Shown: positions 1-11,116 of the stretch, in pieces
Position numbering within the stretch: the first letter of the stretch is position 1
Layout of the letters: every line of letters begins with the position of its first letter
Source of the DNA: Sedimentisphaeraceae bacterium JB056
GTDB taxonomy: Bacteria; Planctomycetota; Phycisphaerae; Sedimentisphaerales; Sedimentisphaeraceae
DNA: 64,000 bases
Direction: 5' to 3'
Assembly (NCBI GenBank): GCA_044440125.1
Contig: JBITAJ010000029.1
Location: 1-64,000 of the forward strand
Translations under genes and position numbers: made by a program
The notes under the pieces: model-generated
What the model was told of the DNA's origin: nothing
Seen by the model: the letters and a program-made list of their open reading frames with translations, nothing else
The model's database searches: none

Positions 1-32
1 TCGTTTGCATTAAATCCTTTAAGACTTGCCAT
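1..32 (-). CDS. 5' end of a gene running off the window (MASLKGFNAN...), probably a DUF669-like ssDNA-binding protein
   Basis: ATG at 32 with upstream AGGAG, overlapping the Sak4-like stop; N-terminus and position are typical of Sak4-SSB pairs. Confidence 0.5.
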   Translation of the reverse strand, partial: MASLKGFNAN

Positions 33-783
33 CTGTTATTTCTCCTGTGGTTGTGTTAATATTGTTTGAAAAATTCTTTTCAAGTCCCTCTGCTATAGCT
101 GATGTAAAACTATCCCAGCTAAATTCAATCTCAGGCGGCATGGAATAGCGGTTCTTTGCCAATGCTCTTGGTGTTTCAGAAGTGATCAGGATACGAGTAT
201 CCTCGTCAATCTTCTTCGCCAGACATACAAAATCGCTCCACTCGATTATCGCATTCAAGTGTTCATCCGGCAGATCCGGTGCTGTTTTCTCGATTACAAT
301 ACCGTCAATATCAGTAATCTCGGTTCGCTTGGCATGAGCCAGCAATATCACCGCTATACCCTTTGAAATAATCCTGTCAAAAAGCGGCAGTAATATCTGG
401 AAAATATAGTTTTTGAGAACTTGCTTACCATTGCCATATCCGCCATGGCTTCGGTTCAGTGTTGAATCTGTTTTACCGCCAGCACAACCTGAGACGTGCT
501 CCTCGATACGACGAACAAGCCAATCGATTGTGTCGACAACTACCACATGGTATGGATGCTCATCTCTCTCGATAGTCTGCAACCAGGCATGAATTTCAGT
601 CCAGGTGCCCAGGTATGGTGTCCTTACACACGCAATAGTTGCGGCACCATTCTCGCAGTCAATAATTAGCGAGCTGCCAGCTCTGGCAGCAAATGTGCTC
701 TTTCCACATCCTGCCTGACCATAGACAATACCTTTCGGCGGTGATGGTTTAGGGTTAGTAATAAGAGTGTTAAGTAACGTCAT
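19..783 (-). CDS. Phage AAA_24/Sak4-like P-loop ATPase (single-strand annealing recombinase family)
   Basis: Walker A GQAGCGKST, IIDCENG, Walker B VVVDTID, LLAH, AKNRY motifs. Confidence 0.85.
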   Translation of the reverse strand: MTLLNTLITNPKPSPPKGIVYGQAGCGKSTFAARAGSSLIIDCENGAATIACVRTPYLGTWTEIHAWLQTIERDEHPYHVVVVDTIDWLVRRIEEHVSGCAGGKTDSTLNRSHGGYGNGKQVLKNYIFQILLPLFDRIISKGIAVILLAHAKRTEITDIDGIVIEKTAPDLPDEHLNAIIEWSDFVCLAKKIDEDTRILITSETPRALAKNRYSMPPEIEFSWDSFTSAIAEGLEKNFSNNINTTTGEITDGKS

Positions 784-798
784 AGAAATACCTTCTGA

Positions 799-1221
799 TT
801 ATGGGTTAGTTATTTTTTTTGCAGCACTGAACACTTCAGAGAGTTCGGTCAGCTCTGAATATTTGCGTTCAAATGCACGTAACTCGTTTTTTGCTGTTCG
901 TAGTAACTCTTTCAGTCTTTCAGGGTCGCTTATCACATCTTCAATAAGTCGATACCCTCCAGTATCACGGTCACGATCCAAGCTCACATACATCCTGACT
1001 TCTTTGGGTTTTGTTTGGGGCAAAATGACTGTAATACGCCTTATCAAGGCTCTGCATTGTTCAATTCGCCATTTATGTGCCGCTGTAGTATCGTTCCAGT
1101 CAAATTCATCATGTAGTGGATTCGATTTTTCTTTTGCCTTTTCGACAACAACTTCAGGAAGCAACAAGCCTCCGTTTTCTTCTGCTATTCGTCGCAGCTC
1201 ATTTGTTTTTTCCGGTTTCAT
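799..1221 (-). CDS. Phage-type hypothetical protein, candidate accessory protein of the RAMP/array locus
   Basis: 140 aa with RBS (AGAAAGGG); SNPLHDEFDWND..AA..WR motif; directly downstream of array 1. Confidence 0.75.
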   Translation of the reverse strand: MKPEKTNELRRIAEENGGLLLPEVVVEKAKEKSNPLHDEFDWNDTTAAHKWRIEQCRALIRRITVILPQTKPKEVRMYVSLDRDRDTGGYRLIEDVISDPERLKELLRTAKNELRAFERKYSELTELSEVFSAAKKITNP

Positions 1222-1252
1222 TAAATCCCTTTCTGTATGTAAAATATTTAAT

Positions 1253-1374
1253 GCCTGCCGTACCTTGTCATGCCTGGCCTATCCACGCCTATCTTTGCCT
1301 TGAAAAGCCACTCCTGCCATGCATTGTCTCACCACGCAGTTCGATACCCCGTCTCGCCATGCCTCGCCTGCCAT
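1253..1374 (-). repeat. Array 1: 5-nt-periodic NN+GGY-like repeat with two full units (10 and 11 pentamers) delimited by GCAGG; putative guide RNAs
   Basis: Minus strand: ATGGC AGGC GAGGC ATGGC GAGAC GGGGT ATCGA ACTGC GTGGT GAGAC AATGC ATGGC AGGA GTGGC TTTTC AAGGC AAAGA TAGGC GTGGA TAGGC CAGGC ATGAC AAGGT ACGGC AGGC. Confidence 0.9.
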
Positions 1375-1377
1375 GTA

Positions 1378-2013
1378 TTAAACAATATCAAATAGTCCCC
1401 AACCCATACCAGCGGATTGCTTACTGTCTGGGCGACCTTCACCAACACCAACCTGTTGCCCAACTCTTAATAGCAGGTTTGCTATGTCCGAATTATCAAA
1501 CTGATCAGCATCCCAGCGAACGGTAACAACTGCTTCCCAACCGGCATCCCACATCGCTCTTGCCCGAAGATCACACACACCTGAAGCGATACGGACATGG
1601 CTCTCGTGATACCTCGGCTCACCCTTTGTAATCTTGACCAGAGGCGTCCCATCGTCCTTATCGAAACCATCTGGCAAAACAAAAACAGATAATTTGGCCT
1701 TTGTCATCGTGAACCCTGCAACCCGGCACGCACTGATCATCGCATTGCGAAATGCCGGAGCGGGGATTCCACACCAACCCTCTGGTGTCTTGTGTTGAGA
1801 CTGTTCAAAGCAGGCATCAAAATCTTTAGATTCTTTCTTGGTTCTATTCTTTGATTTAGAACCGGCTTCTTGCGCTGCGTGCATCTGTTCTTTGGCTTTT
1901 TTACTGAACTTGTTCTGCACATAGGGAGCTGTCCCACGAATTTTGAATTGTGCAACTTTTAAGTTTGGCGGGGCTATTACTGCCGACTCTATAATTTGTT
2001 GTTTGTTTGACAT
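1378..2013 (-). CDS. Stand-alone RAMP/Cas7-like protein (VIPR-like effector candidate)
   Basis: N-terminal strand FKIRGTAPY; GIPAPAFRNAM resembles the RAMP IPGSSLKGA motif; C-terminal Gly-rich loop GVGEGRP...GMGWGLF; flanked by periodic arrays. Confidence 0.75.
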   Translation of the reverse strand: MSNKQQIIESAVIAPPNLKVAQFKIRGTAPYVQNKFSKKAKEQMHAAQEAGSKSKNRTKKESKDFDACFEQSQHKTPEGWCGIPAPAFRNAMISACRVAGFTMTKAKLSVFVLPDGFDKDDGTPLVKITKGEPRYHESHVRIASGVCDLRARAMWDAGWEAVVTVRWDADQFDNSDIANLLLRVGQQVGVGEGRPDSKQSAGMGWGLFDIV

Positions 2014-2042
2014 TCTTTACCTTTCTGAATTAATTATGTGTA

Positions 2043-2064
2043 AAAGTCGGAAACCACCGACTTT
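2043..2064 (-). other. 8-bp hairpin between array 2 and the RAMP-like gene
   Basis: Minus strand AAAGTCGG-TGGTTT-CCGACTTT. Confidence 0.6.
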
Positions 2065-2092
2065 GGTTGAGGGTCGCTCCCCTTTATTTAAC

Positions 2093-2196
2093 ATCTTACT
2101 TTATCAGGTCTCGTCACGCCAAGCCTGCCTCGCCTTGCCGGGCATCGCTTTGTCTTGCCTCGTCACGTCGCGTCATACCATTCCTGCTTTGCTGTG
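2093..2196 (-). repeat. Array 2: 5-nt-periodic NN+GGY/GAC repeat with one full 11-pentamer unit plus partial units
   Basis: Minus strand: ACAGC AAAGC AGGA ATGGT ATGAC GCGAC GTGAC GAGGC AAGAC AAAGC GATGC CCGGC AAGGC GAGGC AGGC TTGGC GTGAC GAGAC CTGAT AAAGT AAGAT. Confidence 0.88.
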
Positions 2197-2994
2197 CTAA
2201 AATAAATCAAGAATCCGGACATCTTCAAATCGTGTCGGCCACAAATCTGACTCGATACAGTTCTTGAGCTCTTCAATATGCTGCTCGTTCTCATGCTGAG
2301 CTTCATCGAGTGCCATCTCCGATATCTTCCATACGCCGCATCGGAACGGCTCTCGTTTCTCGATAGCGACGATGTGAACGTCAGCTTGGATCCCGGATGC
2401 TTCTTTGAGTACTGCTCGATAGAAAGCAAGCTGGCTTATATAGCCGTACCGCCTCGCATCGAACTCAAATTTATCGAGCGAGTCGCAGGTTTTAAGATCA
2501 GCTATTCCTTTTTCGGGATTAAAGTAATCCATCCTGATCTGAGAAGGCAGTCCGCAATAATCAACACGGCAAACGCCTTCGGCGAAGCCTCCGGTTATCA
2601 ATGCGGGAGCAATTGGATGAGTTAAGACCTGATTCTGCATAAATTCAAGGGTAACAAGCTCTTCGCTGCTGATAACCGGCTTGCCAATCTCATCTGCCCA
2701 TGCAGCAAAGGCCTTGGTATTGGAGCCAAAGGGCTTGCCGGTTTTGGGATTTACAGGTCCGCCTACTGCATACTCATCCTCAAAAACTTCTCTTCCCTCA
2801 AGTATCAAGGTATGAGCGGCTCTGCCAAAGCTATAGCATTGCGAATCCCTGTCTTTAATAAGCCCGGTGAGTTTCTTAAAATACATAAGAGGACAATTAA
2901 TGAATTCGATAAGCTGATGGCTCGATAAATTCTCCTTAGCTTGCCAGTGGTAATAATCTGCCGGTTCTTCAATCAAATAATGAAATTTCTGCAT
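2197..2994 (-). CDS. PD-(D/E)xK nuclease, DUF3799/exonuclease VIII (RecE)-like
   Basis: LSSHQL, FGRAAH, RMD...ADLKT, Y..QLAFY, AIEK.EP motifs; start moved to ATG 2994 (RBS AAGGA). Confidence 0.85.
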   Translation of the reverse strand: MQKFHYLIEEPADYYHWQAKENLSSHQLIEFINCPLMYFKKLTGLIKDRDSQCYSFGRAAHTLILEGREVFEDEYAVGGPVNPKTGKPFGSNTKAFAAWADEIGKPVISSEELVTLEFMQNQVLTHPIAPALITGGFAEGVCRVDYCGLPSQIRMDYFNPEKGIADLKTCDSLDKFEFDARRYGYISQLAFYRAVLKEASGIQADVHIVAIEKREPFRCGVWKISEMALDEAQHENEQHIEELKNCIESDLWPTRFEDVRILDLF

Positions 2995-3027
2995 TGTGAT
3001 TCCTTTTAATAATATCGCCTTAGTAAA

Positions 3028-3057
3028 ATACATACCGTGTGAAACTCAAAAGTGTCA
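3028..3057 (-). promoter_or_regulatory. Putative element-specific promoter TGACAC-N15-GGTATGTAT
   Basis: Same motif and spacing recur at 23243-23272; both lie upstream of minus-strand element operons. Confidence 0.55.
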
Positions 3058-3570
3058 GATGTTTTCCATATAGATTTCAAGCCCGTTTTCCTTAAATGCT
3101 TTGCGAAGAGGATTTATGACTCTGTAATAAAAAGTTGATCTTTTAACTCCTGCTTTCTTCGCCGCATGGGTTATTCTTTCACTGCGGGCCAGTAATCTGC
3201 AGCCTTCCTGAAGCTCAGGGGTAAGAGAATTAACTGTTTCCTGAACATCTATCTGAAGTTGCAGGGACCGGCAATCATCGTTTTTATCAATGAAGTCATT
3301 GAAGATTCTCCCTGTTTCAGTAAAAGATCTGCATTTTTGCTCGGTTTTTCTGCGCGAGAGAATGTCAGATATTTTCTTCTGAAGTATGCATTGAACAAAT
3401 GTTGAAGTTTTGCCTTTTTCCGGATCATAGCTCTCTGCCTTTTTGAGAAGTTCCAGATAAAGCTCCTGCTCAATATCCTCTAAATCATTAATCCCTATTC
3501 CGCATCTGCCAAGAAGCAAAGATGCCTTTGTAGAAACAATCTTTCTGATGTAATCATCAATTTCAATCAT
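3055..3570 (-). CDS. Sigma-70/ECF-like sigma factor or regulator
   Basis: Region-2-like DLEDIEQEL...YDPEKG..STF; C-terminal HTH (ITHAAKKAGVKRSTFY). Confidence 0.7.
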   Translation of the reverse strand: MIEIDDYIRKIVSTKASLLLGRCGIGINDLEDIEQELYLELLKKAESYDPEKGKTSTFVQCILQKKISDILSRRKTEQKCRSFTETGRIFNDFIDKNDDCRSLQLQIDVQETVNSLTPELQEGCRLLARSERITHAAKKAGVKRSTFYYRVINPLRKAFKENGLEIYMENI

Positions 3571-3862
3571 AGCGTTCTTTCTTTCAATATGTCTGCACGA
3601 ATTTGCAAAACCTGTTATTTTAATCTAACTAAAACAGCCGTTTTACCTTTATTGAGCTCTCAGTTATTAATGTCGAAATTTCACGCTGATAGCTTTGGAA
3701 TTTTAAGCAGTAACATGGTCGGCAATGCTAAGGCGTTGTTATTTATAGTTTTGCAAAAAATAATAAATTTGAATATTTTTTGTTTTTTGCTGATTCTGAA
3801 AACGAAATTTCACGCAGTGAATTTTCACAGATTAAAATTCATGCAAATTATCTCTTAGACTA

Positions 3863-3890
3863 TTGACCTTTATTATAGAAGGTCTATAAT
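3863..3890 (+). promoter_or_regulatory. Sigma70 promoter of the repressor gene, overlapped by an inverted repeat (candidate operator)
   Basis: TTGACC-N16-TATAAT; GACCTT-N8-AAGGTC at 3865-3884. Confidence 0.6.
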
Positions 3891-3923
3891 AAAGACATGA
3901 TTACTTAGCAAAAGGAAAAGACT

Positions 3924-4544
3924 ATGGCAAAGAAGAAGCTGGCAATCACCAAACCTCAGAAGCAGGCATTGATAGAAATATGCCGCTTTATTGACGAAAA
4001 TGGTTATCCGCCTACTATAAAAGAGCTTGCAGATAACTTTAATATCGCCGCCCCCAGCATGAAAGACAGGCTTACTCATCTCATTAACAAGGGATATATA
4101 TCCATGAAAGCCAATAAAGGGCGAAGTATTAAGGTTCTTAAAAGACCGGCAGATCTGCCCAGGCAGATGATAATGATACCTGTTATAGGTGTTGTTGCCG
4201 CAGGTCATCCGATAATGGCTGAAGAAAATATTATCGGTGAGCTAATGGTAGAAGAGAATATTGTAGCACATGGAGAATATTTTGCGTTGAAAGTCTGCGG
4301 CAAAAGTATGGTGTGTGCGGGGATTAAAGACGGCTCTTTGATCATAGTCAAACGACAGATCTTAGCGGCAAACGGTGAAATTGTGATAGCTCTTCTAAAT
4401 GGCGAGGTTACTGTTAAAAGATTACTGATTAATGATTTAGGAATCAAACTCTTGCCGGAAAACCCTGAAATGGAGCCTATCGCAATAGACTATGATGATG
4501 ATTTAAAGATAATTGGTAAAGTAGTTGCCTGTAGAAACATATAA
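3924..4544 (+). CDS. lexA: LexA-family repressor (element-borne)
   Basis: wHTH GYPPTIKEL, cleavage site VAAG.P, catalytic G.SM and VTVKR. Confidence 0.9.
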   Translation: MAKKKLAITKPQKQALIEICRFIDENGYPPTIKELADNFNIAAPSMKDRLTHLINKGYISMKANKGRSIKVLKRPADLPRQMIMIPVIGVVAAGHPIMAEENIIGELMVEENIVAHGEYFALKVCGKSMVCAGIKDGSLIIVKRQILAANGEIVIALLNGEVTVKRLLINDLGIKLLPENPEMEPIAIDYDDDLKIIGKVVACRNI

Positions 4545-5463
4545 GAACACTGATGGGTTGAACCGACCTCTGGGCTATTGCAGCATGTCAAACCTAAGCC
4601 TTTTCAGGACAGAGGAGTTGCATCAGATGGAAATTAAAGAGCAGGAAGGTTTAGATTGGAAATTAAGAGCACATTCAGCAGCACAAATATACAAAAGGTT
4701 TGAGAGTTTTGAGCCGGGATTGTTGACCGAGTTGATCAAGAATCTTCATCTGTGGGCATCAATCTTACCGCAGGTATATGATGATATCGGGATATACCAT
4801 CCGGTAAACAGTTCCGGGCTCTCACCTGAGGTTACTGAGCTTTCTGCGATAATCGATGAGCTGATATTAAACGGCAGTGATCAATTGGCTAACTGCCTGC
4901 AAAACAAGCTTCAGAGCCTACAGGAATCAGCGTCTATGCTTGATCAGGTATATCCGATTCATACAAATACTCAGCGTTTTGAAGAATTGAGACTCACCGA
5001 TATATGCCAGAGAAAGGCTGAGCTGTTGTGCAGCTATCTCTATAAGCTCAAAGAGAGGTTATTTGAGATAGCTTCCAGTGAAAAGATAGACTTACCAGAC
5101 CAGAAGCAGGAAAAAATGTCACTATCCGAGGTTCCTTGGGAGGACATTGAAATATGCTTTATAGACGGTCATACCGTTTCTATAAAAGCGGATAATAAAT
5201 CCCAGATCTATACGTATGTTCAAATGTCAATGTCCAGTAAACACAACGGACACCCGACCAAACAGTGGCTGCTGCTCGAAGCCTTTGCCCAGACCGGCGG
5301 CAGGATAAGCTGGAAAGACCCGCAGTCTAATACGAATCTGCGAAAACAAAAACAGCTTCTTTCGAGAATCCTGAAAGATTTCTTCTGCAAAGAAACTGAC
5401 CCTATCGATTGGCTCAGAGAGCAGAAATGCTATTGCTGCAGGTTTGGGATATCAATCAGATAA
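4525..5463 (+). CDS. Hypothetical protein, possible C-terminal winged-helix domain; start uncertain
   Basis: 312-aa ORF following lexA. Confidence 0.65.
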   Translation: MPVETYKNTDGLNRPLGYCSMSNLSLFRTEELHQMEIKEQEGLDWKLRAHSAAQIYKRFESFEPGLLTELIKNLHLWASILPQVYDDIGIYHPVNSSGLSPEVTELSAIIDELILNGSDQLANCLQNKLQSLQESASMLDQVYPIHTNTQRFEELRLTDICQRKAELLCSYLYKLKERLFEIASSEKIDLPDQKQEKMSLSEVPWEDIEICFIDGHTVSIKADNKSQIYTYVQMSMSSKHNGHPTKQWLLLEAFAQTGGRISWKDPQSNTNLRKQKQLLSRILKDFFCKETDPIDWLREQKCYCCRFGISIR

Positions 5464-5481
5464 TCATTTATTATAAGCGAA

Positions 5482-7470
5482 TCAGTTTCCAAAAGTACAC
5501 TTTAGTAATTTACCAGAGTCATCACGTCCGTGAAGTCTTAAACGAACAAAAGGTCTTTGATTGATTTCAGTTAGCGGTTGAGATGTCGTTGTAAGGATGT
5601 ATTGAAAACTAATATTATTGTCGTCTTTGTGACACATCTCAATATCTCGCACAAAACGTAAGATTGAATAATATAGCTCATCCTCGCTGTCTGCTTGCCG
5701 AGGACTGTCATGTATAAGCAACCTTGGCATATAACCAACTCCACAAATAGATGCAGCCAGGCATGCTAAATCGTAGCTTAATACATCAGCGTAAGTCCTA
5801 AGTGTTGTTCCAGAATCAGATACTACATTACTGGGTTTGGGGCGTATTCCTTTCCCATCAATTATAATTTCTCCACTGGCATCAGGGGCGACTATTTTCT
5901 GTAATACCAAGGAATAGTATTTTGAAAGGCGTTTTCTTTCTTTATTCATTTTTGATCGATATTTATTTTGTACGACTAATGAATCTGATATTTTTTTCTT
6001 AGTACTCTCGTGATCATTTTTATATTTATCCAGTTGTGACCATGCTGCACGGTATTGCTTGGCTTGTTTAGATCTTGTCTCCCATAGAGAAATCTTCTGA
6101 TTAACATTATCTCTCTTAATTATCAGATTGCTTTCCAGATCCTTTTGGATATGCTTGTTTTTGCCTATCTCTGATTTTATTTCGTTTTGTCTTTCATTGA
6201 GCCAAACTAACCTTATATTCAATGCTGTTAGTTCAGACCTTATCTCTCTTACGATTCTTTTTCTTTCGGGATCAACAATCTCGTGGTTTTGTATGTCTTT
6301 TCCAGGACATCCTGCATTCATTGCCTTTTCTTTTTTATCAAAGAACAAGCAACGCCATCTTGCACTTAATAGGTCTTTTATAAGAGCATCATCATCTTGT
6401 TTTTCTTTTTGTTCAAGCTCGACTTGTTTTAATTTCATGCTATTTTTTTTGTCATTAATTTCCGCTTCAATAGCACCATTTTCTTTAGTCAAATCCTCTA
6501 TTTTTTTTCTGATATCACATATCTCTGCATATTTAGAAAAGTCAGGGTCTCCAAGCAATCTTTTAAGACTCTGTATTTTTTCGTCTGCAATCTCCTTAAG
6601 CATTTCGCCAAATAATTCACCATGAATAGCGTCTTTAACTTCCTCTATTGAATTACGGAGCTGAATTTCCGTCTCATTAATGAAATTTTCATATCGTTTA
6701 GCATCTCGTTCAAAACGGTCTCTATCAATCAATAATTTACGATGAATTCCCATTTGTGATGTTTCTTCAGGATGTAAAAGCCCTAAAGCCATTTTCATTA
6801 CCAAATAAGCATCTTCTCGAGTAAGCACTCTGGAACCTGCTTGAGCATCAGTGATTCGCCAGTCTGCATGATGAGCAAAATGACAATCCTGATCTCTGCT
6901 CAGCCATCCCAATAAATCTTGCCAACAAGCTTTTCTATAATCAGCATGCGGCAAACCAATATCAGCGTAACAGTTTTGGGTTGCTTTATTAATGGCATTT
7001 AGAAATATTTCATATTTGAGACGTGAATCTTTGCGTAACAACTCATTCAATCTATTTGACTTTATGCACCATGAACAAACGTGGCCGGATTCAAGACCAA
7101 GTGGACGAGCAACACTCCAAGTTTGTTTATCCACTCTAATTTGCGCCAATACATAAGCATGTTCCAATTTGTTTGTAATTGCACTTCGTAATGTATCTGT
7201 GCAGTATCTTTTTTCACCAAGACAATACCGAATTATGCGAACCAATAAGGATTTCCCGACACTATGCCCAACCGTATGCACATCGCGAGATGTTCGTTTT
7301 TCAGTACATATAAGATTTAACCCACGTTTAAATCTTATTTTGCGAATGACTCGTATAGGCTTTTCAGTGCTTTCAATTATAACAAGCTTTTTGATCCAAA
7401 TTGCAGGTTCATCAAAATTACAAACCGGCTCTATAAATCCTTCAGGAAAAAGAAAATTCGATCTCTGCAT
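5482..7470 (-). CDS. SMC-like ABC ATPase of ABC-three-component/Lamassu (LmuB-like) type
   Basis: Walker A GHSVGKS, long coiled coil with C-x14-C, C-terminal LIHDSPR and FQYILTT; ATG at 7470. Confidence 0.75.
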   Translation of the reverse strand: MQRSNFLFPEGFIEPVCNFDEPAIWIKKLVIIESTEKPIRVIRKIRFKRGLNLICTEKRTSRDVHTVGHSVGKSLLVRIIRYCLGEKRYCTDTLRSAITNKLEHAYVLAQIRVDKQTWSVARPLGLESGHVCSWCIKSNRLNELLRKDSRLKYEIFLNAINKATQNCYADIGLPHADYRKACWQDLLGWLSRDQDCHFAHHADWRITDAQAGSRVLTREDAYLVMKMALGLLHPEETSQMGIHRKLLIDRDRFERDAKRYENFINETEIQLRNSIEEVKDAIHGELFGEMLKEIADEKIQSLKRLLGDPDFSKYAEICDIRKKIEDLTKENGAIEAEINDKKNSMKLKQVELEQKEKQDDDALIKDLLSARWRCLFFDKKEKAMNAGCPGKDIQNHEIVDPERKRIVREIRSELTALNIRLVWLNERQNEIKSEIGKNKHIQKDLESNLIIKRDNVNQKISLWETRSKQAKQYRAAWSQLDKYKNDHESTKKKISDSLVVQNKYRSKMNKERKRLSKYYSLVLQKIVAPDASGEIIIDGKGIRPKPSNVVSDSGTTLRTYADVLSYDLACLAASICGVGYMPRLLIHDSPRQADSEDELYYSILRFVRDIEMCHKDDNNISFQYILTTTSQPLTEINQRPFVRLRLHGRDDSGKLLKCTFGN

Positions 7471-10400
7471 AATCTTCCACCTCACAATAATCATCTAAAA
7501 TCAAATTCGTATCGTTTAATTTTCTAATTGCTTTTAAGCACTCTTCAGCTTTATGGAAAGCTTTATTCACTCTTTCGTCGTTTAATTTATTGCCCAGTTC
7601 TAAGGCATTTTTGCCTAAGCTAATAAGTTGTCTTTTGTCACGCGTCTCAATTATAACGGTATCCGTTCCCGCCAATTCCCCAAGAAATTCATCAAAATTT
7701 ATAAAGCAGGGTTGTTTATTTGATTTAGTAGTGTCTTTTTTTATCTCTAAATTTGCAACTCTTCTCCTTAGCTCATCTCTTTGCATCAACAACATGCCGA
7801 CTTCAAAGGCTCGCCTATCTACCGATTTATTCCAAACATAAAGCAATGCTAAGGCATCAAGAATAGCCATTGCATGCTCAATTTTTTCGGTATCAATAGT
7901 TGAATTCTGATGAAGTATATGCGATGTCTGACTATTAGTATTATTAAGAACAATTATCTTGTCAAACATTCTACGTATATAAGTATGCTTATCTTCTTTC
8001 ATAAACAATACATTACGGTTATCCAAATCGGATTTACTTACCGTAGTGCCAATCCAGTTTATTTCCAGATATCTGGATTCGGATATTATAAATGAATTTA
8101 GAACAACGTCTGGATCGTTTAGTCTTGTTTCAATTTCTTTTATCTTCTTATGGAATTCTATTTTAGCATCCTTTATACCGTTTAAATTACGCAACCCCTT
8201 AGGATCAACAAAACTGATATGCTGTTTATTCTCAGCAACAAGCCATACTATGAAATCAGGATAGAAATTTCCTGCTTCAAAAAAGCCTACACCTTTGCCT
8301 CTGCTTCTGTTTCTTAATATATAAAGTTGTTTGTCTGCGAAGTATTCTTCATTGGAACGGCAAAAAGTTTTAATATCCAACAGGAAATTCTTTTCGCTAT
8401 CGACAAGAGCCACCGGTTTTATTTCAACATCACAATCAGGGGTTTTCCAGAGAAGAGGCTGATACAGGTGATTATTGAAAGCTATCGAATTAAATCCGGG
8501 CAAATCTATATCCAGTTTAGTAAATTCAGCCGGTTCAAGCTGCTTTGATTCTATTAGCTTCTTCACCTTTTCAAGTTTGGCTATAATATCTCGTCTGGAA
8601 GCATTTATCGCGAATTCATATTCTTTTACAAAATTAGGATCATCTGCTCTAAGCTCTCTATATTCAAGATGCTCTTTTTCCCAATTAGCTTTCTGATTTT
8701 CGTAGCACCTATTTGTATACTTTTTCAGAAGTGCAACCGCCAGCTCCTGCCACCGGGGTACTTTTGTAAAACTGTCAAAGGCCAGCTCTTTAGCCGGTAT
8801 ATATACCTTATACCATTCGGTATCATCTAATAATCTTTTAAGAACATTTCTGTCTATATTAAGATTATACCATGACCTTTCATTTTTGTATCGAATAAGC
8901 TCGAAGTATATCTCATCAATATTCAACAAACTAACATGATCGGGTGTAAGGCAGCCAACATCCGGAATACCTTCAGCAACAGCGGCAGTAGCTGAATAGC
9001 TCATGATAGACTGCACCTTTGGATACCAGTTGATCTCGATGGGCCTTCTTTTAAAATCCCTATCGGGCAATCCAAGTGTAGGTTTTGGTGCCTGCTTTTT
9101 ATAGCTTACTCCTTCTTTCAGCTTTATTGTCTTAAGCTTGACTTTACCGAGATTATTCAGTACCGGCAAAATAAATTCGATCTTGTCGCCATCGACAGGC
9201 AGCCCCTGTTCTTTCAGATATTCTTTGAACTGGCTCATATAATCAGCGTGGATACCAAAAATATTCAGTGTCTCCAGCATACTTATATAATCAGGAGCTT
9301 TAGCTCCGACCGTTTTGCTGCTACGTTTTAGGCTGAAATCAAGACCTTTAAGCCTTACGCCTCTGCCGAAAAGCTGTATAATCTGGGAGCCTTCATTTTT
9401 GCCTATATTCATAAGCCCCATTGTACTTACACGCCAGCTGCTCCAGCCCTCGGTAAACTTTCTCGAACCTATCAGAAGATTGATATTAGAAGATTCCGAA
9501 TTTATATTTCTAAAAAGCGATTTTGAAAACGGCTCATCACTAACCACCATTTGCTTGTGTTTTTCACAAAGTTTGCAAAGTTTGTCAGAATCACCAACAT
9601 TTATAACCCCGAAAGGCTCGTTCTCTCCTAAAGATAAGGCGATCTCGCCATCGGAGCCTTTAAGATTTCTGACGTGAAGCAGACCGGCAGAATTGGAATT
9701 AAAAAGTGTTCGCAAGACATCGTTATATAATTGGGCAGGCTCGGTATCATTCATAGAAGCCAGATAAGTGAAATTTGTACTGAGCAGATCACTGCCCCGG
9801 CTATTCAGAAGCCCGCTTTTGCCTTTGAGGAAATCATCAATGAAGCTTACAGATTGCTTACTGTTATTGGCGAATTCAGCTAAAAACAACAGTATATCAA
9901 TGATATCTGACACATCTTTCTTGCTTATAGTCTTCGTAACGCTGCTGCCGACAAAAATCCAAAGAGGCTTCTCAATAAGAAACTTTTTCAATTCACTTCG
10001 CTTATCATTGAACAGTTTTTGCTGCTGATAAAACGCCATCAGGCAAGCTGTGAGATATCTCACTCGTTGCTGTTGGTCGCGGTCATCTTCAAGGTTGAGA
10101 ATACGATAATCCTTGCCGTAACCATCCTCATAAAAAAACTTGTAGGAGTAGTCAAATATAATACTCTTGGCATACGTGTTAATAAGCTTCTTGTCTTTTT
10201 TGACTGCCTGGCCGAATGTGGCAGAATATTCGAATGAAAACCCATTTTCACAAAGGCAGTTTCTTCGCTCCATCCATTTTCCGCTGCTTCCGCCTGATGT
10301 GCCTCTGTGGCCTTCGTCGATGAGCACAAGATTATTGTCTTCAAAGGCTTCCACGGCGATAGTCTTATCTCCGGAGGTATCCGAGAGTTTGGATATTTCT

Positions 10401-11116
10401 ATGATCTCTACAGGTTTATCATTTAAATGCGTTAGAGGCATACTGCCTGCTTTATCAAATATATCGCCAGTTAAACCAGAAAGTGTCAGTTCTTCATTAT
10501 GCTGATTGCTGAGCCCTTCGTTTGGCGTGAGTAATATTACCTTATTGAGCTCTTTATGCATATTCTCTCTTGCCAGATAATATTTGTATTGCAGGATATT
10601 GATATGCATCAGCAGTGTTTTGCCCGAACCGGTAGCATTCCAGAGCGATATCTTGTTGAGATTTTCAATGTTGAAAGCTTCAATCCTCTCCTTCTCCGGC
10701 AGCTTCTCGTTAAAAGAATCGAGATATCGGTTGAGATCATCAAGGAGCTTTTCTTTGCTTGTGAAATATCTGTCAAGATAAATTTCGGTAAACAGCAAGC
10801 TGAGATACTGGAAATATTTAGGATAAAGCTTTTTGCCGTTGGCTTCCCTCTTTTCGGTTATCTGTTTCCAATAACGCACAATCCTCTGGTCATATTTAGC
10901 AAGCATATCAGAGGTAATCTCCACGCGGTCAAAAAGCCTCGCCGTCAAGACGCCGTAATAACGTGAAAAACCGTCTTCTGTGATACAGTCCTCGTCAAAT
11001 CCTTTAAGCCCGTAAGAGAGCTCCTCGATATTTTTGACTTCGAATAAACTCAAAAGCCAATTGAAAAGAACAAGCTTCTCACTGAAATGCATTGTTTTTT
11101 TAGTTCTTTTTGCCAT
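7442..11116 (-). CDS. Type III restriction endonuclease Res subunit with C-terminal extension
   Basis: ATGSGKT, DEGH, YSATF, FTEGW, QLFGRGVR helicase motifs; FYPDF..FVDPKG nuclease; ~165 extra residues. Confidence 0.9.
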   Translation of the reverse strand: MAKRTKKTMHFSEKLVLFNWLLSLFEVKNIEELSYGLKGFDEDCITEDGFSRYYGVLTARLFDRVEITSDMLAKYDQRIVRYWKQITEKREANGKKLYPKYFQYLSLLFTEIYLDRYFTSKEKLLDDLNRYLDSFNEKLPEKERIEAFNIENLNKISLWNATGSGKTLLMHINILQYKYYLARENMHKELNKVILLTPNEGLSNQHNEELTLSGLTGDIFDKAGSMPLTHLNDKPVEIIEISKLSDTSGDKTIAVEAFEDNNLVLIDEGHRGTSGGSSGKWMERRNCLCENGFSFEYSATFGQAVKKDKKLINTYAKSIIFDYSYKFFYEDGYGKDYRILNLEDDRDQQQRVRYLTACLMAFYQQQKLFNDKRSELKKFLIEKPLWIFVGSSVTKTISKKDVSDIIDILLFLAEFANNSKQSVSFIDDFLKGKSGLLNSRGSDLLSTNFTYLASMNDTEPAQLYNDVLRTLFNSNSAGLLHVRNLKGSDGEIALSLGENEPFGVINVGDSDKLCKLCEKHKQMVVSDEPFSKSLFRNINSESSNINLLIGSRKFTEGWSSWRVSTMGLMNIGKNEGSQIIQLFGRGVRLKGLDFSLKRSSKTVGAKAPDYISMLETLNIFGIHADYMSQFKEYLKEQGLPVDGDKIEFILPVLNNLGKVKLKTIKLKEGVSYKKQAPKPTLGLPDRDFKRRPIEINWYPKVQSIMSYSATAAVAEGIPDVGCLTPDHVSLLNIDEIYFELIRYKNERSWYNLNIDRNVLKRLLDDTEWYKVYIPAKELAFDSFTKVPRWQELAVALLKKYTNRCYENQKANWEKEHLEYRELRADDPNFVKEYEFAINASRRDIIAKLEKVKKLIESKQLEPAEFTKLDIDLPGFNSIAFNNHLYQPLLWKTPDCDVEIKPVALVDSEKNFLLDIKTFCRSNEEYFADKQLYILRNRSRGKGVGFFEAGNFYPDFIVWLVAENKQHISFVDPKGLRNLNGIKDAKIEFHKKIKEIETRLNDPDVVLNSFIISESRYLEINWIGTTVSKSDLDNRNVLFMKEDKHTYIRRMFDKIIVLNNTNSQTSHILHQNSTIDTEKIEHAMAILDALALLYVWNKSVDRRAFEVGMLLMQRDELRRRVANLEIKKDTTKSNKQPCFINFDEFLGELAGTDTVIIETRDKRQLISLGKNALELGNKLNDERVNKAFHKAEECLKAIRKLNDTNLILDDYCEVEDYAEIEFSFS

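Follow-up and report, generated by a model that had tools for sequence, protein, structure and literature searches.

Near the start of the window (the whole 64,000-nucleotide stretch analysed) a run of genes on the minus strand encodes an exonuclease, a 211-aa protein, a smaller 140-aa protein and a Sak4-like ATPase, and two of the gaps between these genes hold arrays of five-nucleotide repeats (Table 1). The gap at 2014-2196 is 183 nt long and separates the exonuclease gene from the gene for the 211-aa protein. Its minus strand, read from 2181 to 2127, contains eleven 5-nt units, each made of two variable nucleotides and a G-R-C-like triplet. In order the dinucleotides are AT AT GC GT GA AA AA GA CC AA GA, and the minus-strand decoding given earlier from the sequence alone is correct. 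A second pentamer run, again on the minus strand, occupies the next gap (1222-1377). We scanned the whole genome for at least 7 of 12 in-phase GRC triplets at period 5, and these two gaps were the sole places found in its 4.54 Mb. The period-5 array is far beyond chance expectation.

Table 1. Features of the exonuclease to Sak4-like gene region of the window.
Feature	Coordinates	Strand	Description
Own Sak4-like AAA_24 gene	19..783	minus	mismatched counterparts of the B target (420 to 394) and the A target (312 to 286)
Candidate vap (Vipr accessory protein)	799..1221	minus	140 aa, phrog_15946, after unit B
vrRNA unit B	1255..1314	minus	12 units, NN = GT TT AA AA TA GT TA CA AT, then AA AC AG
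vrRNA unit A	1314..1368	minus	11 units, NN = GA AT GA GG AT AC GT GA AA, then AT AG
vipr	1378..2013	minus	predicted 211-aa Vipr (RAMP/Cas7-like), G-loop GVGEGRP; phrog_4652, function unknown in PHROG
Hairpin	2043..2064	minus	AAAGUCGG-UGGUUU-CCGACUUU, 8 bp, between array and vipr start
Trailing partial unit	2101..2125	minus	GGCTT GGCGT GACGA GACCT GATAA, decays into AT-rich sequence
vrRNA unit C	2125..2184	minus	12 pentamers: GGA-AT GGT-AT GAC-GC GAC-GT GAC-GA GGC-AA GAC-AA AGC-GA TGC-CC GGC-AA GGC-GA GGC-AG
Handle-like leading units	2184..2198	minus	AGCAC AGCAA AGCAG, precede unit C, overlap exonuclease stop codon
Exonuclease, DUF3799 PD-(D/E)xK	2197..3033	minus	upstream of array; own site at 2347..2373

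The arrays are staggered, with GGCAG closing each unit and its final G forming base 1 of the next, and unit C is flanked on both sides by such a 1-nt-overlapping ..CAG/G stagger. Units A, B and C flank vipr and lie on its strand. The handle-like leading units are similar to the xxCAA-xxxxx-GGCAG end of each unit. Across clades there is no conserved three-unit 3' handle, as no dinucleotide exceeds 19% at positions -2 and -3 in 136 unit segments from related loci, and at the 3' end the terminal AG alone is fixed, by construction of the segments. A canonical GGY triplet is found in 18 of the 35 window units, with GAC in six and the others degenerate, compared with about 93% GGC or GGT in the related segments (87% GGC, 5% GGT). 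We assume, by analogy with the published systems, that the window protein would bind its GAC and degenerate units. The hairpin, possibly a terminator-like element or some 3' structure, is present in both the MFE and centroid folds; the region around it folds no better than shuffles (z=-0.37), and a terminator scan did not flag it. A search of Rfam with window positions 1-6000 found no family at E<=1.

To place the 211-aa protein we used a family alignment of 56 sequences, the window protein as first row and 55 homologues. The family profile matches one solved structure alone, PDB 36pp_D, the 'SUSP1 Vipr protein' (E=7.7e-35, chain residues 1-188); a single-sequence phmmer search with the window protein gave no PDB match at E<=0.01. 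The AF2 model has a pLDDT of 91.7 and its best Foldseek matches are Cas7-family RAMPs, namely Csm3, Cmr4 and the type VII Cas7 (E about 1e-5), in a structure library that is older than the Vipr PDB entry. Within the G-loop the conserved columns read G-x-G-[ED]-x-R, with G189 and R194 invariant. On its profile similarity the product of 1378..2013 is predicted to be a Vipr protein, and it is the only vipr in the genome (completeness 99.8%, contamination 2.0%). We considered whether a glycine in place of SUSP1 W178 could account for the degenerate units of the window, and dropped the idea: the whole clade has GEGRP, yet carries GGC arrays.

VIPR (Viral Interference Programmable Repeat) was described in two preprints of 2026 (bioRxiv 10.64898/2026.04.26.720920 and 10.64898/2026.04.26.720927). 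In the accounts given there a system combines a ~20-kDa Vipr and, usually, a vap gene with vrRNAs built of 9-16 YNNGG repeats. Each repeat is taken up by a single Vipr protomer, which sequesters GGY and presents NN, and binding silences transcription. The natural targets named are competing phages, satellites and resident prophages, so far mainly in E. coli and Pseudomonas. The first preprint (10.64898/2026.04.26.720920) sets a match of at least 80% NN as its criterion for a natural target and reports no self-targeting at that level. It also describes, in the legend of its fig. S18, 'staggered arrays' of consecutive vrRNAs with a 1-nt overlap, and reports that internal degeneracy of vrRNAs is frequent and that variant consensus sequences occur in functional systems. 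The guide unit and the skip lengths of 0-3 with which the sequence-only reading had worked are VIPR logic.

The association between array and vipr holds well beyond the window. Homologues of the 211-aa protein were found at 17 IMG/VR loci (45-64% identity), and the (GGCNN)n arrays in these loci, of up to 88 units, always lie on the gene strand in neighbouring gaps. The converse scan, with the bare pattern (GGCNN)8GGC (nine GGC triplets), returned at least 137 stretches, 80 of them with flanks. We examined 81 de-duplicated loci, of which 68 were selected by array and 12 by homology, the last being the window. By profile a Vipr family member lies within the flank in 62 of the 81 loci and in 49 of the 68 array-selected ones. 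The homologue is on the array strand in 60 of these 62, and it usually starts or ends within about 35 nt of the array or lies one gene away. The remaining 19 array loci (L025, L030, L031, L044, L062, L067, L077, L081, L085, L090, L095 and others) have no Vipr homologue within the flank. In several of these the array sits at a contig end, and others may be the 'solo vrRNA' phages mentioned in passages of a third preprint (bioRxiv 10.64898/2026.10.15.759431).

Some of the phage arrays in IMG/VR are very long (L023 3951-4671, L003 4060-4521, L013 4115-4527 and L052, which has eight arrays). The (GGCNN)n chains reach about 120 units and carry a GGCAGGC stagger every 8-15 units; the 136 in-register segments have a modal length of 9-12 units. 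These long staggered chains would suggest tandem batteries of many guides. When 131 guides of the related loci were compared with the DNA of all the loci examined, none reached 16/16 and neither did the control, the target set being too small.

The candidate vap, directly downstream of vipr in the window, has a phrog_15946 homologue in the same position in 28 of the 81 loci, the window counted. Its AF2 model has a pLDDT of 94.7, and consists of a winged-helix-like domain and additional helices, residues 1-100 resembling winged-helix domains weakly (Z<=6.5); Foldseek gave no match to the model at E<=0.001. For the exonuclease an internal ATG is the probable start and gives a protein of 265 aa, and the database copy of the window exonuclease and its homologues are likewise 265 aa long, 95% of the open reading frame.

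We then asked where the guides match. Each guide was scored at skips of 0-3 bases along both genome strands (9.09 million positions in all), and the unit order was shuffled as a control (60 shuffles per guide). The sequence-only reading had claimed that unit C decodes to a conserved motif of the adjacent exonuclease gene. That site, 2373 to 2347, reads ATC GTC GCT ATC GAG AAA CGA GAG CCG (IVAIEKREP) and agrees with guide C at 6/9 dinucleotides and 14/18 bases, exactly as given in that reading. It is also the single best skip-1 site for guide C within the 64-kb window. Across the genome it is one of 78 skip-1 sites at 14/18, with a further 8 at 15 and 1 at 18, or 87 sites at 14 and above. Equally good matches at other skip lengths or in unrelated genes had been named beforehand as counting against the claim, and we found them: 14/18 is reached at skip 0 (3 sites) and at skip 2 (1 site) in unrelated places of the window. 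Taken alone, a score of 14/18 for the own gene is no better than chance.

The first nine dinucleotides of guide C are matched at 18/18 once in the genome at skip 1, the next best site scoring 15. The perfect site lies on another contig, at G000:C27:313377-313403, and reads ATC ATA GCT GTC GAG AAA AAA GAG CCG (IIAVEKKEP). The first nine of guide B are likewise matched at 18/18 once genome-wide, 580 nt downstream in a Sak4-like gene (G000:C27:313957-313983, VFKNYVYQI). Guide A reaches 17/18 once over its first nine (next best 16), a further 108 nt downstream in the same Sak4-like gene (G000:C27:314065-314091, DIDGITIEK). All three targets fall within 715 bp on the coding strand, in frame 0, and the skipped base is the wobble base. 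The earlier proposals that a guide unit is read with one skipped base per codon, and that all three full units lead to recombination genes of the element family, were both borne out, the genes being those for the exonuclease and the Sak4-like ATPase. Shuffled guides reached the observed score in 0/60 cases for C, 0/60 for B and 4/60 for A, and guide A alone is not significant. Genome-wide, skips 0 and 2 gave at most 16/18, and skip 3 matched the arrays themselves alone.

In all three guides the match to the sibling genes is confined to units 1-9, which for unit C are positions 2184 to 2140, followed by AA GA AG. Over whole units the sibling sites score 19/24 (C), 18/24 (B) and 19/22 (A), so that C and B fall just below the 80% criterion and reach it only if a handle, or other sequence outside the guide, makes up the last 2-3 units. 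The own counterparts score 15/24 (C), 15/24 (B) and 16/22 (A) over whole units, which gives no self-targeting at 80% NN or above. If the first nine units alone are counted, B and A both score 15/18, or 83%, at their own counterparts, and the verdict on self-targeting therefore varies with the guide length. The adjacent own gene does not hold up as the target of guide C, its match being below the criterion over both lengths. The match is not accidental, because it lies at the homologous position of the perfect target in a paralogue. It is the homology shadow of the sibling target, and self-targeting is not supported.

The sibling exonuclease has 288 aa, belongs to DUF3799 and shares 83% DNA identity with the window gene, with the target at the homologous position. 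On contig C27 the gene order is a sigma-like gene, the exonuclease and then directly the Sak4-like gene, and this sibling element has no vipr, vap or arrays. The contig ends 18 nt past the Sak4-like gene. Its end and the start of the window contig have an identical 141-nt terminus, from which two contigs of about 5 kb (C13 and C14, 88-94% identical) both continue; these are the next segments of the two siblings. The assembly therefore holds a pair of sibling elements whose left arms have diverged and whose continuations are nearly identical. Both elements, although on separate contigs, are likely to reside in one cell, given the high completeness and low contamination of the assembly.

The divergence between the siblings allowed us to ask how the guides are placed. 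At first and second codon positions the self and sibling alleles are 91.7% identical in the exonuclease and 86.5% in the Sak4-like gene, and windows of nine codons free of any difference make up half of the exonuclease (130/258) and 29% of the Sak4-like gene (71/247). The guide C window has 4 differences, and 4 or more occur in 14% of exonuclease windows. For guide B the number is 3 (3 or more in 49% of windows) and for guide A it is 2 (2 or more in 62%). With guides placed at random, differences at least this large would arise jointly with a chance of about 0.04, a product calculated post hoc. It hints mildly that the guides are placed at points of difference between the carrier and its relative, and we do not claim selection for escape.

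A pattern search in related genomes and prophages, as the sequence-only reading had suggested, found the exact guide C pattern in 83 IMG/VR stretches, and 72 of the 80 examined carry it in frame in homologues of the exonuclease, reading [IM]IAVEK[KN]EP. Guide C does decode to the E-x-K catalytic region of the DUF3799/PD-(D/E)xK exonuclease. In genome contigs at least 119 stretches have the pattern; 45 of the 80 examined have it in a homologue of the exonuclease, and most of these come from Lentisphaeria, Victivallales or Planctomycetota records; the remaining matches are unrelated to the exonuclease. The guide C pattern also occurs, exact and in frame, in a conserved Sphingobacterium gene reading VIIAVENNDPERL (L248, L249, L254, L255 and others), a gene unrelated to the exonuclease, where the match is probably coincidental. 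Of 14 stretches with the guide B pattern, 4 are in Sak4 homologues, as are 4 of the 7 with the guide A pattern; the other A and B stretches include stops or fall in unrelated frames. All three guides have perfect targets on one IMG/VR contig, and A and B have them on two more, at the A-B spacing of 108 nt seen in the sibling. No vipr, vap or arrays are present in the examined stretches of these three contigs. A single-protein search of IMG/VR with the exonuclease returned no loci, and among the VIPR-positive relatives one alone has an exonuclease in its flank (L052, motif LVAVEKREP, 14/18).

How conserved the motif is bears on what the guide could recognise. Among the best 120 homologues of the own exonuclease the E and the K are invariant and positions 1, 2, 4 and 7 vary. 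The motif, described as conserved, is so only in part, and 12 of the best 120 homologues are compatible with the guide C peptide. With a motif that is only partly invariant, guide C would mark about a tenth of close homologues. We also considered IVAIEKREP as an unusual escape variant and rejected this, as its residues are common and the exact variant occurs twice among the same 120.

We consider it very probable that window positions 799-2198 on the minus strand are a prophage VIPR cassette whose guides have as their natural targets the exonuclease and Sak4-like genes of a VIPR-less sibling. The cassette would lie between the carrier's own exonuclease and Sak4-like genes and comprise, in order, the handle-like units, vrRNA C, vipr, vrRNA A, vrRNA B and the candidate vap. 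By analogy with the described systems, expression and processing of the vrRNAs would take place at the locus, and Vipr protomers would each bind one pentamer, concealing its G-G-Y-like triplet and leaving the two variable bases exposed. The exposed bases would pair with a DNA strand, every third target base being skipped, and the bound filament would be expected to silence transcription. Guide C would thereby address the sibling exonuclease codons for IIAVEKKEP in the E-x-K catalytic region, and guides B and A the sibling Sak4-like gene. The own alleles mismatch at 3-4 of the 18 read positions, from which we infer that the carrier's copies are probably spared.

It is possible that the cassette is instead a decaying relic and that the matches reflect past targeting. 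The loss of GGY from almost half of the window units, set against the largely uniform triplets of the relatives, would fit such decay, as would the trailing partial unit, which has no notable target genome-wide (best 15/18, 2 sites). Against this the vipr reading frame is intact and its product gives a confident model, and internal vrRNA degeneracy is frequent in functional systems, as the first preprint reports (10.64898/2026.04.26.720920). The guides have also kept 18/18, 18/18 and 17/18 matches, where quick erosion would be expected without selection, given 8% divergence at read positions. We therefore regard a relic as improbable.

The position of the own site, the best skip-1 match in the window and in frame at the homologous motif, raised the question of whether guide C acts on the adjacent exonuclease in a self-regulation of the recombination module that tolerates the conservative differences. 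The 15/18 own counterparts of B and A are in keeping with this, and this clade may tolerate mismatches. However, the perfect target of guide C lies elsewhere in the genome, the score of the own site is equalled or exceeded at 87 genome sites and reached by other skips within the window, and the agreement declines to 15/24 over the whole unit. The authors of the first preprint also found no self-targeting at 80% NN or above among their systems (10.64898/2026.04.26.720920), and silencing its own recombination genes would bring the carrier no evident benefit. Self-regulation is very improbable on these grounds.

The array also brings to mind a different kind of element. Sites for TRAP (trp RNA-binding attenuation protein) consist of triplets 2 nt apart, about 11 in a row. 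A triplet with a 2-nt spacer, about 11 units and a hairpin upstream of a gene recall such sites, and the array could serve an oligomeric RNA-binding regulator as its row of binding sites, or be a structural element of the DNA, with coincidental guide matches; this is scarcely credible, as the adjoining protein is a Vipr homologue, the three guides lead to one 715-bp region at 18/18, 18/18 and 17/18 at a 1-nt skip alone, and the array has no Rfam family. Unlike at TRAP sites, there is no TRAP-like protein at the locus and the variable dinucleotides carry the target information. The TRAP-like, ring-protein, replication-origin and pentapeptide-coding readings of the array were all dropped because the neighbouring protein is a Vipr homologue.

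The prophage VIPR cassette therefore remains our reading of the locus, which is a further VIPR system and reveals no new kind of system. The closest described examples are the type II systems of Escherichia phage SUSP1 and a Pseudomonas fulva prophage. In the published descriptions of these, as in the window, a small RAMP-like Vipr is flanked by non-coding pentamer arrays with a fixed triplet and variable NN, an accessory gene (a candidate in the window) lies beside vipr, and one guide is upstream of vipr with the others downstream. Shared features also include the 1-nt skip at the codon wobble and targets in a competing or resident mobile element. There are several differences. Protein similarity is detectable at the profile level alone, and the G-loop reads GxGEGRP in the window clade in place of GVGDWRP. 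The window units have 1-nt-overlap staggers without tails, whereas the described vrRNAs of SUSP1 and P. fulva have a long invariant 3' tail (a pseudoknot in the SUSP1 clade). The window triplets are often GAC or degenerate, with the first 9 of 11-12 units matching, which is unlike what is described for the two systems. Their targets are a satellite recombinase or lysogeny regulators, in contrast to the recombination genes of a sibling. The word 'Sak4' does not occur in the text or supplement PDF of the first preprint (10.64898/2026.04.26.720920), and neither 'exonuclease' nor 'annealing' occurs in passages of the third (10.64898/2026.10.15.759431).

Passages of the same third preprint describe a SUSP1 vrRNA against the catalytic core of a satellite recombinase, and guide C resembles it in being a codon-periodic guide on an active-site region, here the E-x-K of a PD-(D/E)xK nuclease. 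With such a guide synonymous changes would give no escape. Unlike in the satellite-recombinase case, the window motif is only partly invariant and the own allele would escape via the conservative substitutions I/V, V/I and K/R. A more distant likeness is to Cas7 and the crRNA of Class 1 CRISPR, with which Vipr shares the RAMP fold and, in the authors' accounts, one protomer per repeat length and a periodic break in the guide-target pairing (10.64898/2026.04.26.720920, 10.64898/2026.04.26.720927). Unlike Class 1 CRISPR the system has no CRISPR repeats, spacers or other cas genes and is carried by a phage, and in each of its units 5 nt of guide correspond to 3 nt of target, where Class 1 CRISPR has 6/6.

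The prophage VIPR cassette provides a clean natural set of guides and targets outside E. coli and Pseudomonas, two perfect and one near-perfect in the same assembly; the labels of homologues point to a Planctomycetota or Lentisphaerota setting. It would suggest that guides in staggered arrays are effectively nine units long, and that 3-4 conservative changes in a catalytic motif can distinguish a carrier from its close relative. The 18/18 and 14/18 sites of guide C are a ready-made pair for measuring mismatch tolerance. The cassette sits between genes whose cassette-less alleles its guides match, and its flanking own alleles would be spared. We can speculate, although we think it rather unlikely, that cassette and targets form a linked poison-antidote block. 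If so, a sibling phage residing in or infecting the same cell would have its empty-site allele silenced, and recombinants inheriting the cassette with its flanks would be immune, giving a drive-like spread through the phage family. The placement of the guides in windows that differ between carrier and sibling is a weak pointer in this direction.

The wider neighbourhood of the cassette differs between the two elements. In the window a sigma-70 region-2 gene (3055..3570, minus strand) stands at the head of an operon with the order exonuclease-VIPR-Sak4, and a LexA/S24-type repressor gene (3924..4544, plus strand) is divergent from it. At the corresponding place the sibling element lacks a repressor, and its sigma-like gene is a different one (54.5% DNA identity). 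Next to the prophage arm of the window are two large minus-strand genes, 5482..7494 (670 aa, no Pfam match) and 7442..11116 (1224 aa), which could be a defence or other accessory module.
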